A stretch of DNA of 64,000 nt from Escherichia coli (GCF_045037415.1 NZ_CP173438.1), one strand, 5' to 3'; shown: positions 2,422 through 14,086, counted from the first letter of the stretch. A program made the numbers and translations. Notes: generated from the letters alone by a model not told the origin.

Positions 2422-2466
2422 TGGTGCCGATAATAGGAGTCGAACCTACGACCTTCGCATTACGAA
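2422..2466 (-). repeat. 45-bp partial copy of the tRNA-Thr 3' end; distal att repeat of the thrW island
   Basis: Identical to 14011-14055 (3' part of thrW); the integrase gene lies next to it. Confidence 0.85.
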
Positions 2467-2621
2467 ACCAAAAAGCATCTATTTTTCCGCATATCTACAC
2501 GTCTCTATAAATCTCATAAAAATATTAAAAATCATATAATTAAACAAAAAACCCATCTTATATTGTTCCATCGAATTTCGCTCTATACAATGCTAAACAA
2601 GTACGCCAGCAAGTACGCGAG

Positions 2622-3953
2622 ATGAGGCCAAAAATGGCAATATTGATAACCCAGGACAGGCAAGTCGCAAACCTGACTCCCCCTGAAGGAAAAAGTCGGA
2701 TAACCGTCAGCGTCAAATCAAAAGTAGGTTCCGGCCTGTCTGTCGAATCCCGTTCCGGGAGTCAAACGAAGAGCTGGATTTACCGCCCTTACCTCAACGG
2801 AAAACAGATTAAAATAACGTTAGGCTCCTACCCTGCAATGACATTGTCTCAGGCGCGTGAAGCACATGCAGACGCGCTGGCGCTGGTTAAACAAGGTATT
2901 GATCCGCGTTATGCGCGAAAAACGGAAAAACAGCAAAATGAACAAATGCCGATTTTTTCACAATTATGAAAAAACTGGCTGGCATTCCGTGAAACCAATA
3001 AACCCATTGGGGCGCGTACTCTGGCTGATTATGAGGGAACATATCGCCGCCATCTGGAGAAAGGTTTAGGTTCAGTACGCGTCTGCGACCTGTCCAGAGC
3101 CTACATTTATGAACATCTCATACGGATCAGAAAGACCAGCGCCGAAGGTGTCCGCAAGGGACTTATTCTTCTCAATATGACGCTTGACCATGCCGCTTTG
3201 CAGGGATTGATCGATCACAACCCTGCTCGCTTGCTTAAACCCGCAATGTTTGGTGCCTCAATGGGAAAACCGCGTGAGCGTTGGTTGCCACAAGACGAGT
3301 TGCAAATGTTATGGAAGGCACTGGATGAAGCGGGGTTCGGCGGCGGATCTGTCGCAACCGGAGGGCGAGGCATCGCGTCCAGCGTTATTCTTTCACAAGC
3401 GATTGCTAACGCATTACGCCTCATCATCCTGACGGGGGTGCGACGTTCCGAAGCGGTGAATATGCGTTGGGAGCAGATTAATGGCAACCGCTGGACAATA
3501 CCTGAAACCAAAAACGGTAAAAGTCATATCGTGACGCTACATCCTCTGGCGCTTTCTCTATTGAAGACTCAGCGCATTATTTCAGAAGGCGGCTGGGTAT
3601 TCGAGTCGCTCAGTAAGCCAAGTTTTCCTGTCACCGGTGACGCAATAACTCGTGCTCTTGAACGCCTGAAAACAAAATATATGGCAGAAGTCGCTCCTTT
3701 CTCACCACATGATTTACGCCGCAGCATTGCTACAGGCTGCGCTGAATATCTGGACGCACCAGAACGGCTTATAGAACTTCTGTTAAATCATGTGCCCAAA
3801 GACAGGTTAATCAGAACCTACCAGGTCGGGCAGCAAGCGGAAAAATTACGGAATCTGTTTCTGAAATGGGGGGATTTTATTGAGCATGAGATCATTGAGT
3901 CTGATAATGGTACTCCAGATAATGTTATTCAGATCAGCTTTGGAAAGAGATAG
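2622..3953 (+). pseudogene. P4-type tyrosine integrase, interrupted by two frameshifts
   Basis: Integrase-like translation continues through frames 0 (2622-2969), 1 (to 3069) and 0 (3063-3953); C-terminal HDLRRS and conserved Tyr region present. Confidence 0.8.
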
Positions 3954-4117
3954 TTTCGTATTTTCATGAGTAGAGATCGTCTGATAACTCAGCGATCTCT
4001 TACTCGATGGTGCTATGTATTGAATTAAATGAATATGTTTGAGTTATTGCCACGAAGTTATTCATATAACCAAAGCATCATGGCCCAATTCAGAGTCCCT
4101 GAACAGCGCTAAGAATA

Positions 4118-5038
4118 TTACTCCAGCACCCTCTCTAGCTTATTCACCGCCGCCACATACTTCGCCGGATTTTTATCTTTAAGCATCGCCAGATTGCGTT
4201 GCTTCCAGCGAATAGCCGGAAGATGCTGAATTTCAGGATAGCGATACCGCGACCAGTCAGGGCTGTTTTGCTTAAAACTGAGCAAGAACTCGCGATCCAG
4301 ATCCGTAAAATGTGACTTCAACGCCTGCGGCAGCAAAGTCGTTACTGACAGAAGCGATTCCAGCGACGTTTCCTGCTGAGTCATCCCCGAAAATTCCTGA
4401 GCGTATAACGTGGCAATCCGATCTGTATCCCAGTTTGAAGCCAGCAACTCGGCAATGGGACGGGGATGGCCTGCCAGATAACAAAGAAAACCGTCAAAAA
4501 TTTCGCGCGTCAGGCCCGGTCTCCCCAGCATATTCAACACATCAAACAGATCGCGCGGATGCTGACGATCAAGCGCAGCACATATTTTACCGCCATAAAG
4601 ATCCGCCAGCGAGACGACACTCATGGTGGTGAAGCCATACTCCATTTCCACACGTTCGCACACAGGCATTTCTGCCGGAGGCAACAACAGCCCGCGCCAG
4701 ACCGGGCTAACCTCGATCTTAATCTTTGCATCAGCGGTATTCACAATGATGCGCTTTTCATCCGCTTTATTTTCCTGCCGAATCGCGGTGATCCCCGGTC
4801 TGCCGTTCAGCGATGCAGTAATTCTCTTCAAAGCGTCGTTGATCGCCGCCAGATCGGTATCGCGATCCGCAAAGCTCTTATACGCCAGATCGATATCCAC
4901 CGATAGACGGGGGAAATCCTGCACAAATAAATTGATTGCTGTGCCGCCTTTCAACGCGAAACAGGATTCCTTCGCCACATGCGGCAGAGCGGCCATCAAC
5001 AGTTTAACCTGCCTGGCATAGCTATCACGCAGATCCAT
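4118..5038 (-). CDS. AbiEii-family nucleotidyltransferase (type IV toxin, DUF1814)
   Basis: Motif KGGTAINLF...RLSVDIDL characteristic of AbiEii NTases; start taken at MDLRDSY. Confidence 0.8.
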   Translation of the reverse strand: MDLRDSYARQVKLLMAALPHVAKESCFALKGGTAINLFVQDFPRLSVDIDLAYKSFADRDTDLAAINDALKRITASLNGRPGITAIRQENKADEKRIIVNTADAKIKIEVSPVWRGLLLPPAEMPVCERVEMEYGFTTMSVVSLADLYGGKICAALDRQHPRDLFDVLNMLGRPGLTREIFDGFLCYLAGHPRPIAELLASNWDTDRIATLYAQEFSGMTQQETSLESLLSVTTLLPQALKSHFTDLDREFLLSFKQNSPDWSRYRYPEIQHLPAIRWKQRNLAMLKDKNPAKYVAAVNKLERVLE

Positions 5039-5828
5039 CTTCGACTCCTTCCGGTTTAAATGTGCGGGGAACAGTAATTTGATAATCCGGCTCCAGCCAG
5101 CCACCAGGTATGATTTGCCGCTTTCCCGTACCTGTTTCTATACCGCTTTGATCAAGATACTGAAAATAAGGGTGTCCATTACGCCGGGCAAGGTAAAGCA
5201 TCACCCGGTTGGTTTTAATCGAATGACTGGCGCGAAGCAGTGCCTGCAATTTGCGTGGGCTGAGAAGATTCCCCCCCTGAAACAGAGCATCGGCATGTTC
5301 GAACGAGATCAACGAAGGAACGCCGCAGGCGATCTCATACGCGGCCAGTTCCGGTGCACTGCCTGCTAACTGCCGGTCGCCAATTTTCAGTTCCGTAGTA
5401 AATGACGAGACATCAACGGTAAGGCCCGATGTATACAGCGTGATAAATGTTGCTGATTGTTCGAAGGCAGCAAACCATCCCGGCAGTTTGACGTAAGCCG
5501 GAAGCGCGAGCCAGACCTGCGGCTTACCCGGTTCGGTATAGTGCGCATGGCCCTGAAGCGCAAGGCTGGTTAGCCCCGCCACCCGAACAGGCTTTTCCCA
5601 CTGTGTTTGAAGGCAGTAAACCGCGTCTACCCAATCCGGCTCACGGCCCGTCCGGCAGTACACACCGTGAGCGATGCGCCTGAGCCAGCCATTCTGAACA
5701 TAGAGATAAGAAAGCTTACGATCTACGCCATTGCGGGTAAGCCATGACTGGAGCAGCACCTGACCGGGTAGCGTGTTTTGCATCAACCAGTTTAGATAGT
5801 TTGGCAAATGTCGCTCCTGAATAGACAT
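5025..5828 (-). CDS. AbiEi-family antitoxin/transcriptional regulator
   Basis: 267-aa ORF immediately upstream of and overlapping the AbiEii gene by 14 nt; partner position and size fit AbiEi. Confidence 0.65.
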   Translation of the reverse strand: MSIQERHLPNYLNWLMQNTLPGQVLLQSWLTRNGVDRKLSYLYVQNGWLRRIAHGVYCRTGREPDWVDAVYCLQTQWEKPVRVAGLTSLALQGHAHYTEPGKPQVWLALPAYVKLPGWFAAFEQSATFITLYTSGLTVDVSSFTTELKIGDRQLAGSAPELAAYEIACGVPSLISFEHADALFQGGNLLSPRKLQALLRASHSIKTNRVMLYLARRNGHPYFQYLDQSGIETGTGKRQIIPGGWLEPDYQITVPRTFKPEGVEDGSA

Positions 5829-12834: not shown

Positions 12835-13176
12835 TCCCCGGCGTGGTTTTGCGAGGCGCATTCCAGATCCGCATTGCGCCGCACTCACCGCAGCAAAACC
12901 GCTTGCCGTTCATAACCGATCGCAGTATCTTTCTCCCGCGCCTGCAAAATCAGGCGTCGGGATTAGCCTCCTGAAAACCGTTACAGGCGACACTTGACGC
13001 ACCAGCGTCTTTTTTGTGTCGTGCGTTCGGCTACACCTCAATGGCGGGCCGGGCGGGGGCGTCGCAAGACGCGCCGGTTTCCTGTAACGCCGGTAAGGCT
13101 AACCCCGTCCGGTTCCGCCCCCATGAGATTAGCCTCTCTAGTGGCGGACATAATAAACCGTTACAGGAGACGCCCT

Positions 13177-13647
13177 ATGGCTACAATCCTCATCTCTGAC
13201 TGCGATTTACTCGATCTATTGTCCGCTCCCTTCAATGCCACCACGGATTTCACCGTCCTGGCCGACTACTGCGCCCGCTTCGCCGAAACCCTGATAGAAA
13301 CCGACGATCCGGCGCTGCGGCTGGCGCTCTGCGGACGGCTTCACGCGGCTCTTGCGCTATTGCAACCCACGCTGCACGACCCCATCCCGCCGCATCTGAT
13401 TGAAAGCCTGACCGTTGATACCCTTCCCGCCACACCAGAGCACTTTATTTCCGAACCAGATTCCTTGTGCGAATACTGCCTCGCGCTGCTCCAGCTACTG
13501 CTGGAACGTCCAGCAGAGCCAAAAACGGAACAAACCCTGACCGGGCTTCTGTGTGAGCTGGTCTGGAATTTCACGGAAGGACTCAAATCCCCGCGCTGGC
13601 TGCGTACCGCCGACGGCGTAAAATTTATCAGTGAGGTGGCCGCATGA
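13177..13647 (+). CDS. Hypothetical protein, 156 aa
   Basis: ORF with AGGAG 7 nt upstream of ATG at 13177; the longer track ORF from 12994 is rejected as the start. Confidence 0.5.
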
Positions 13648-13980
13648 TGCAACAGGACTGACATTCCGCCGACATTATTGCGGTGCTGAAAAAGCGGGGA
13701 ACGCCTCTGGCGGCACAGAGAAAAACTCATTGCGGAAGCGCTGTAAATATCGCCAGAAATCATCTGGTCCTCAAGGTACTTTGATAGCAAAGGCAAGCTG
13801 GCTGGTTCAGTCCGGAGTCTCTCTTCTTGCACTTAAAGAGATGGGAGGATGGGAAACTCTTGAAATGGTTCGTCGTTAGGCTCACCTTTCAGCCAGGCAT
13901 TTCACCGGGCACGCGAGCAAAATCGATGCGATTATAAGTCGCAATGGCACAAATACGGCACAAGAGGAGAACGTGGTGTA
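13631..13980 (+). pseudogene. Degenerate 3' remnant of a tyrosine integrase gene next to thrW
   Basis: ..[17 protein letters not shown] then stop, then ..AHLSARHFTGHASKIDAI.. in frame; similar to remnant at 2222-2330. Confidence 0.45.
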
Positions 13981-14010
13981 TTTAAATATGGGGTAACTAC
14001 TTGATTTTAA

Positions 14011-14086
14011 TGGTGCCGATAATAGGAGTCGAACCTACGACCTTCGCATTACGAATGCGCTGCTCTACCAACTGAGCTATATCGGC
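14011..14086 (-). tRNA. thrW: tRNA-Thr (anticodon CGU)
   Basis: Reverse complement reads GCCGATATAGCTCAGTTGGTAGAGCAGCGCATTCGTAATGCGAAGGTCGTAGGTTCGACTCCTATTATCGGCACCA; 76 nt. Confidence 0.95.

Follow-up and report, generated by a model that had tools for sequence, protein, structure and literature searches.

A very probable copy of the ST131 genomic island GI-thrW, with IS1 in its hsdS gene, at the thrW locus of an Escherichia coli genome

The tRNA gene thrW of Escherichia coli is the site of GI-thrW, a genomic island of sequence type 131 (ST131) that was described by Totsika 2011 (PMC3203889) and, for the O25b:H4-ST131 strain EC958, also by Forde 2014 (PMC4134206). On GI-thrW lies the type I restriction-modification (R-M) system EcoMIII (EC958_0424-0426, in the order hsdR-hsdM-hsdS), the knockout of which abolishes methylation at RTACN4GTG as detected by single-molecule real-time (SMRT) sequencing (Forde 2015, PMC4659465). 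The island and its methyltransferase M.EcoMIII occur in most ST131 genomes and are absent from ST38, ST405, ST648 and two ST131 isolates (Shaik 2017, PMC5654935). The interval yagP-proA, with tRNA_Thr_CGT, is defence hotspot #33, where 275 of 555 genomes have an occupant, 'integrase-only' elements are shown and AbiEii was found (Hochhauser, Millman, Sorek 2023, PMC10121019); the link to hotspot #33 is taken from the supplementary table of that study, the main text of which does not name thrW. AbiE pairs from other sources form a type IV, non-interacting toxin-antitoxin system in which AbiEii binds GTP and AbiEi represses the operon, and they confer phage resistance and stabilise mobile DNA (Dy 2014, PMC3985639). 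Here we describe the thrW locus of an E. coli genome (GCF_045037415.1, NZ_CP173438.1), studied on one strand of 64,000 nt; this whole 64-kb stretch is referred to as the window. The interval between two copies of the thrW 3' end is very likely the published 10.8-kb GI-thrW of E. coli ST131, enlarged to 11.6 kb by the insertion sequence (IS) IS1 and present as a further decayed copy. The island, the specificity of its R-M system and the hotspot are already known from the literature, and specific to this strain is the predicted loss of EcoMIII.

The island and its site at thrW

Over positions 1-11086 the window is 100% identical to EC958 (NZ_HG941718.1) and over 11855-17000 it is 99.98% identical (EC958 317.4-330.7 kb), and the island itself, apart from the IS1 and one extra base, is 100% identical to GI-thrW of EC958. 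Identity and synteny cover EC958 317.4-328.3 kb including the order hsdR-hsdM-hsdS, and the proteins AbiEi, AbiEii, HsdR, HsdM and HsdS carry the same RefSeq accessions in both genomes. Site, repeats, gene order and proteins are those published for the O25b:H4-ST131 island (PMC3203889; PMC4134206), while only the present copy has IS1 in hsdS and an extra A at 12505-12513. Without the extra base and the IS1 with its target duplication, the island measures 10,767 bp plus the repeat.

One boundary of the island is formed by the intact tRNA gene and the other by a direct repeat of its 3' end. The 45-mer TGGTGCCGATAATAGGAGTCGAACCTACGACCTTCGCATTACGAA is the reverse complement of tRNA positions 32-76, which begin on the 5' side of the anticodon loop and extend to the terminal CCA, and occurs exactly twice in the window, at the two junctions given in Table 1, whereas 100 shuffles produced zero matches with 3 mismatches tolerated. 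This repeat, reported by a first-pass annotation made from the DNA alone, was reproduced exactly and with correct coordinates. The similarity of the junctions exceeds these 45 bp: 2404-2466 and 13993-14055 agree at 94%, and 2209-2343 and 13796-13932 at 75-81%. To the right the island is flanked by proA and proB, to the left by a second, diverged integrase fossil, a small hypothetical open reading frame (ORF), yagU, ykgJ and ecpE.

To look for the uninterrupted site, excision was simulated by joining window 1900-2466 to 14056-14600, and the resulting 1,112-bp sequence was searched for in 5,426 complete E. coli genomes. This product was found in one place, at 80% or more, in 80 genomes. Four of these (NZ_OY019088.1 and three more) are without the island exactly at the 45-bp repeat and show 100% identity to the joined sequence along its full 1,112 bp, with flanks identical to those of the window; one of the four, isolate 42, is labelled O25b:H4-ST131, and its empty site is annotated in the order yagU, hypothetical, integrase fossil, tRNA-Thr, proA. 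AbiE together with hsdRM (at least 80% coverage) is present in 540 of the 5,426 genomes. Because of the exact empty junctions, this limited presence and the different element that K-12 holds between the same repeats, the interval is a discrete accessory insertion at a shared site and not conserved core DNA, which agrees with the insertion of about 11.6 kb originally proposed.

The element of K-12 is CP4-6 (262898-297205), and the statement of the first-pass annotation that K-12 carries a different occupant at thrW held in the comparison. CP4-6 shares with the island the tRNA, the core and the geometry, with the integrase gene starting directly beside the distal partial tRNA and pointing into the element, and the distal partial thrW of the window has a position and role equivalent to ptwF of K-12. 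However, CP4-6 is 34 kb long, its cargo is unrelated, and at protein level its integrase IntF is only 22% identical to the integrase of the island; orthology with IntF was rejected on this identity, despite the same geometry.

Disrupted hsdS, dead integrase and intact AbiE

A type I R-M system had been listed in the cargo from the sequence, and its three genes are indeed present, but an intact system is not, the IS1 and the frameshift in hsdS having been missed. The IS1 interrupts hsdS behind codon 92, within the part that encodes the first target-recognition domain, and a run of nine A residues at 12505-12513, where all relatives have eight, causes a frameshift that removes the conserved C-terminus. 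In this copy R and M are thus accompanied by a broken S, whereas the ancestral allele has all three intact; the intact 415-aa HsdS allele of strain 4/1-1 matches the PADLOC model Specificity_I with 1.2e-302. PADLOC matched full-length AbiEi and AbiEii as well as the type I R, M and S models at this locus, in line with the defence cargo initially proposed. The same IS1/hsdS junction is absent from all 5,426 complete genomes. Strain 18044, the only genome covering the query in full, was considered as sharing it and rejected, as its hsdS and IS1 pieces lie about 430 bp apart and represent a different insertion.

In type I systems the methylase M2S and the nuclease R2M2S both require the S subunit. 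Because both complexes need HsdS and hsdS is destroyed by the IS1 and the frameshift, EcoMIII is predicted to be silent in this strain, with restriction as well as methylation of RTACN4GTG lost. Such a loss would be safe for the cell because restriction vanishes together with methylation, and AbiE is the only intact defence predicted to be left in the island. Insertions were also seen in other copies: IS1 lies between the integrase gene and abiEii in the ST131 genome NR1430, IS903B lies under an hsdR match in a poultry isolate (ST131), and strain 18044 has its separate IS1 in hsdS. These repeated hits in other ST131 islands suggest that EcoMIII is dispensable and repeatedly lost.

The integrase was likewise recorded as a P4-type gene, and the family assignment was confirmed by Pfam: with the stop replaced by W, the domains Arm-DNA-bind_3 (DUF4102; 6.4e-17), Phage_int_M and Phage_integrase (2.1e-15) are found. 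The gene itself is a pseudogene, which had been overlooked, with an in-frame TGA at 2967-2969 (W112*), a codon that encodes Trp in all close intact relatives; it adjoins the core but does not encode a functional integrase. By megablast the stop-bearing allele is present in 519 complete E. coli genomes, all at 99% identity or more, and no intact copy of this allele was found in complete E. coli genomes, the remainder being 17 short partial matches. Intact relatives of 439-441 aa are 91% identical in Pectobacterium, 86-89% in Raoultella, Klebsiella and Salmonella, and 79% in E. coli, the latter being two sequences on 618 and 534 contigs. In nine of nine loci fetched (E. coli, Salmonella) an identical 45-bp thrW core stands 166 bp upstream of the start codon, so that the core is conserved beside the integrase across relatives; the spacing in the window is 167 bp. 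The conservation of this linkage in all nine loci strongly, if indirectly, suggests a thrW-specific family whose attachment site would be the core beside the gene. With the integrase dead in the ST131 lineage, the ST131 copy is an immobilised member of this family and the island is therefore essentially fixed.

Intact relatives of the integrase carry cargo that differs from that of the ST131 island, including other defence genes. In Salmonella the cargo consists of an Eco57I-like enzyme and AlpA-type genes. In E. coli a 26-kb thrW island (NZ_AP021895.1, 3568307-3594122; L019) has an intact integrase with 79% identity; its cargo includes a UvrD-like helicase, another type I R-M system, this one with a DUF4268 gene, a type I Zorya and a YagK/YfjJ gene. 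Its far end is formed by thrW, and beyond its borders follow a yagP fragment and paoD. Compared with this island, the ST131 copy has a dead integrase, smaller cargo, and a phage-like fossil end in place of the YagK/HTH module (HTH, helix-turn-helix). The 'integrase-only' islands (PMC10121019) share the hotspot, an integrase without other mobility genes, and the reported AbiEii.

AbiE is present as adjacent full-length abiEi and abiEii in one operon, as had been noted from the sequence and as the PADLOC matches confirm. The two genes overlap by 14 nt, a bicistronic, overlapping layout that is the same in AbiE of Streptococcus agalactiae and Lactococcus (PMC3985639), which are only distant sequence relatives of this pair. 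A search for a clear AbiEi operator upstream of abiEi gave only a weak palindrome at 5816-5861 with 73% complementarity, and scanning for promoters and terminators gave no more than is expected from shuffled sequence. By analogy, a stabilising role of AbiE would fit the persistence of an island with a dead integrase.

Several points weigh against the picture of a fixed copy of GI-thrW that has lost EcoMIII and kept AbiE. The score of HsdR in TIGR00348 is 259.6 bits, just under the cut-off of 284.55, though the protein equals the experimentally active one of EC958. The island is not absolutely fixed despite its dead integrase, given its precise loss in a few ST131 genomes; the loss in the four genomes named above could have occurred by recombination between the 45-63-bp repeats or through an integrase acting in trans. 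As a whole the island is compositionally not distinct (49.8% GC versus 51.9% for the window): the comparison of GC and codon usage, which the first-pass annotation had suggested, was overall uninformative as evidence for a foreign origin, while it revealed a mosaic interior with 36-37% GC in hsdS and a GC3 of 71% in hsdR. The silence of EcoMIII in this strain is predicted from its sequence, and the ninth A could be a homopolymer sequencing error, but the IS1 alone suffices. Finally, the anti-phage role of this E. coli AbiE pair is putative.

Table 1. Features of the island and its borders, in window coordinates (GA, Rfam gathering score; sRNA, small RNA)
Feature	Position	Strand	Evidence and remarks
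Second, diverged lambdoid integrase fossil and 'spacer B', outside the island	2209..2421	+	Chromosomal flank in empty-site genomes
Distal copy of the 45-bp repeat, partial thrW (tRNA positions 32-76)	2422..2466	+	Exact repeat
P4-type tyrosine integrase pseudogene	2634..3953	+	Translation; Pfam; RefSeq 'internal stop'; reads away from distal repeat
abiEii, DUF1814 nucleotidyltransferase toxin, intact	4118..5038	-	PADLOC AbiEii 4.6e-115, full length; WP_000365807.1
abiEi, antitoxin and autorepressor, intact	5025..5807	-	PADLOC AbiEi 1.4e-77, full length; WP_001295795.1
hsdR of EcoMIII, intact	6091..9189	+	PADLOC REase_I; 100% DNA identity to EC958
hsdM of EcoMIII (M.EcoMIII), intact	9183..10820	+	PADLOC MTase_I 1.4e-304; identical to EC958
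hsdS of EcoMIII, inactivated	10810..12834	+	Split after base 11086 by IS1; frameshift
IS1, 768 bp	11087..11854	-	8-bp target duplication GAAGGTTA at 11079-11086 and 11855-11862
C4-type antisense-RNA immunity module	12925..13125	+	Rfam; terminator scan
a1/b1 target-like element	12925-12977	+	Rfam c4-a1b1 43.8 bits, GA 46.7 (just below)
isrK-like sRNA	12938-13015	+	Rfam isrK 68 bits, GA 50; terminator 12996-13015
C4 RNA	13037-13125	+	Rfam C4 71.8 bits, GA 45
'ash family protein' ORF, 52 aa	13041..13199	+	RefSeq WP_071550417.1
Conserved hypothetical protein, 156 aa	13177..13647	+	WP_000201175.1
ner/nlp-like HTH gene stub	13644..13792	+	TGA at codon 6; no C-terminus; fused by old deletion to integrase fossil (alignment)
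C-terminal fossil of lambdoid-phage integrase, then 'spacer A' to thrW	13793..13996	+	Catalytic Tyr codon now TAG
thrW-proximal repeat copy, 3' 45 nt of thrW (attL-type junction)	14011-14055		Exact repeat
thrW, tRNA-Thr(CGT)	14011..14086	-	ARAGORN; Rfam tRNA 71.8 bits; exact repeat

Further observations concern the surroundings of the island. To its left a 61-aa hypothetical ORF lies at 2015-2200 on the minus strand, and between the distal thrW repeat and yagU this ORF and the integrase fossil take in ST131 the place of yagP and paoABCD, which are present there in K-12 and several other lineages. An Rfam match to the sRNA IS009 (193.6 bits) was found at 980-1180 on the minus strand between ykgJ and yagU, overlapping a 39-aa ORF that is named 'tail fiber assembly protein' in RefSeq relatives. 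Apart from the IS1 in hsdS, two further IS insertions distinguish the window from EC958, both in the region of the lateral flagellar cluster Flag-2. The first, at 27281-28037, is an IS1 with 98.3% identity to that in hsdS, is absent from EC958 and lies between a motA-like gene and a gene for a FliA-like sigma factor. The second is an insertion of 1,432 bp at 32560-33991, likewise absent from EC958, between fliD and lafA; its terminal inverted repeats TGAACTGCACCCCAAA/TGAACTGAACCCCAAA and 3-bp target duplication are consistent with an IS3-family element.

The thrW-proximal end and alternative readings of the island

The last ~1.1 kb at thrW is a fossil regulatory end, probably left by an earlier occupant of thrW and fused to the island by deletion. 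For the island one hypothetical gene had been counted in the first reading; in place of this gene stands a small module of isrK and C4 RNAs, an 'ash' ORF, a 156-aa protein, a ner-like stub and an integrase fossil. The statement that phage structural genes are lacking was borne out, none being annotated or detected in the island. Both the C4 RNA and the isrK-like RNA exceed the Rfam gathering score and the a1/b1 element stays below it. The 'ash' ORF overlies the C4 RNA on the same strand and the PHROG 'regulator' families match only this short stretch; what is annotated here as a protein may in reality be an RNA gene. For the 156-aa protein no match was obtained in Pfam, PHROG, NCBIfam, PADLOC or PDB sequence searches; more than 600 homologues exist in Enterobacterales, named only 'hypothetical' or mis-fused 'ash'. 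In the inspected loci its gene follows the C4 RNA region and precedes the ner-like HTH gene, and in a tRNA-Phe island (L007) with AbiE and a PDC-S06 ATPase a homologue is followed by a full-length HTH gene.

The HTH stub, which from our own reading of its peptide we take to be ner-like, has as its counterpart in strains CFSAN061763 and ECSC054 a RefSeq HTH gene missing the C-terminus. In strain B2C a lambdoid prophage integrase has a C-terminus nearly identical to the adjoining integrase fossil, and behind it come the same spacer and the thrW core; of this spacer, 69 bp are also retained beside ptwF in K-12. In the window two diverged 3'-end fossils of lambdoid integrases are seen (2209-2421 and 13793-14010; 75-81%), both with a spacer and the thrW core behind them. 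In one genome (L011) a complete lambdoid prophage abuts with its xis-int end the core and a P4-type integrase, and the fossils could derive from such a tandem arrangement.

The thrW variant of CFSAN061763 and ECSC054 is colinear with the island in AbiEi/AbiEii (93.5% DNA identity) and in the end comprising isrK, C4, the 156-aa gene and the truncated ner and int genes (94%), with the same deletion junction. It differs by a 1,069-aa UG5-nitrilase reverse transcriptase (DRT) in place of hsdRMS, by the lack of the P4-type integrase and the distal repeat, and by a fossil/spacer allele of B type. ST131 and CFSAN061763 share the deletion junction and differ in the fossil/spacer allele, which implies segmental exchange beside the core. 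Judging from the two variant genomes inspected, the stretch between AbiE and the RNA module appears to behave as a cargo slot. Some 300 other genomes have a match to AbiE only, with 90-95% identity, which is consistent with this variant.

In a closely related reading, which we regard as quite possible although we lean slightly against it, the interval would unite two successive occupants of thrW fused by deletion, a defence island with integrase, AbiE and R-M system and the stump of a temperate phage or satellite with isrK/C4, the 156-aa gene, the ner-like gene and the lambdoid integrase. After fusion both parts would have moved, or been inherited, as one unit between the cores, and the reading refines that of a GI-thrW copy rather than excluding it. 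It is favoured by the junction itself, at which a ner-like gene without its C-terminus abuts an integrase without its N-terminus on the same strand, by the match of this fossil to a lambdoid prophage integrase behind which spacer A and the thrW core likewise lie, and by the occurrence of C4-type immunity regions in SfV, Stx and other temperate phages. Moreover, related integrase islands differ at the thrW-proximal end, with YagK/YfjJ and an HTH gene in the 26-kb E. coli island and AlpA in Salmonella, and the lambdoid prophage with its xis-int end beside the core and the P4-type integrase shows the precursor arrangement. However, no middle remnant of the core is visible in the window. In addition, CFSAN061763 and ECSC054 lack the P4-type integrase and yet have the fossil end, the cargo slot and AbiE in one continuous stretch, so that AbiE may be an original partner of the fossil end and the integrase a later acquisition.

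An improbable explanation is that the interval is a degraded P4-like phage satellite, which would have kept its integrase-side defence hotspot and RNA immunity region and would be mobilised by a helper phage. The P4-type architecture of an integrase adjoining its core, the C4-clan RNA with the 'ash' ORF and the size of ~11 kb are compatible with such an origin, P4-like satellites use hotspot #33, and the slot between AbiE and the RNAs holds hsdRMS or the UG5-nitrilase reverse transcriptase depending on the lineage, as in satellite hotspots. Against it, psu, delta, sid, alpha primase and cos-associated genes are neither annotated nor detected in the island or in inspected relatives: for psu, delta, sid and alpha primase, none is annotated in five RefSeq copies and variants and none was among the proteins scanned with PHROGs. 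The gene order of P4 does not match the succession of RNA, 156-aa gene and ner-like gene seen here. In addition, occupants of hotspot #33 of this kind were classed as 'integrase-only' (Hochhauser 2023, PMC10121019).

An origin of the interval as ancestral core DNA, with a 45-bp repeat that arose by local duplication of the tRNA end and has nothing to do with mobility, can be set aside as virtually impossible, since the presence in nearly all ST131 genomes and an overall GC close to that of the genome are outweighed by AbiE and hsdRM occurring in only 540 of 5,426 genomes, by the 80 empty sites, by the different K-12 element between the same repeats and by the integrase-core linkage conserved across genera, which already refute it.

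A proposed history of the island and its significance

The history that we propose for GI-thrW builds on the observed anatomy, the identity with EC958, the empty site and the gene disruptions, with the specificity of EcoMIII and the mechanism of AbiE taken from the literature. The island would have entered the segment of thrW between the anticodon loop and the 3' end by site-specific recombination, with a thrW-specific P4-type tyrosine integrase, encoded at its far end beside the attachment core, as the likely recombinase. The extent of the repeat, together with what is generally known of tRNA-targeting integrases, suggests that recombination took place in the anticodon loop. The island carries two defence functions, AbiEi/AbiEii and the type I R-M system EcoMIII, the former of which could also stabilise the DNA carrying it. 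A deletion would have joined the fossil regulatory end of an earlier thrW occupant to the island. W112* has inactivated the integrase in the ST131 lineage, so that the island is essentially fixed, and in the present strain IS1 and the frameshift have also destroyed hsdS, which is predicted to leave EcoMIII silent and AbiE in place.

If the S subunit is lost, the lineage-typical RTACN4GTG methylation would be gone and one barrier to incoming DNA and phages would be removed. This is relevant for methylome typing of ST131, for transformation and for phage-therapy work, although its practical value is modest. The comparison of the occupants illustrates how thrW gathers layers of fossils from successive phages and islands.

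The block of isrK, C4, the 156-aa gene and the ner-like gene recurs at tRNA-Phe islands and in many Enterobacterales. A speculative and, in our view, unlikely idea is that this block controls a family of 'integrase-only' defence islands with wide distribution, its RNAs acting as an immunity switch that would sense a helper phage and trigger excision or transfer. In that case the stretch separating the block from AbiE, with hsdRMS in ST131 and a UG5-nitrilase reverse transcriptase elsewhere, could serve as a dedicated site for defence cargo. If true, a control region of this kind would help to explain the movement of such islands, which was left open by Hochhauser 2023.

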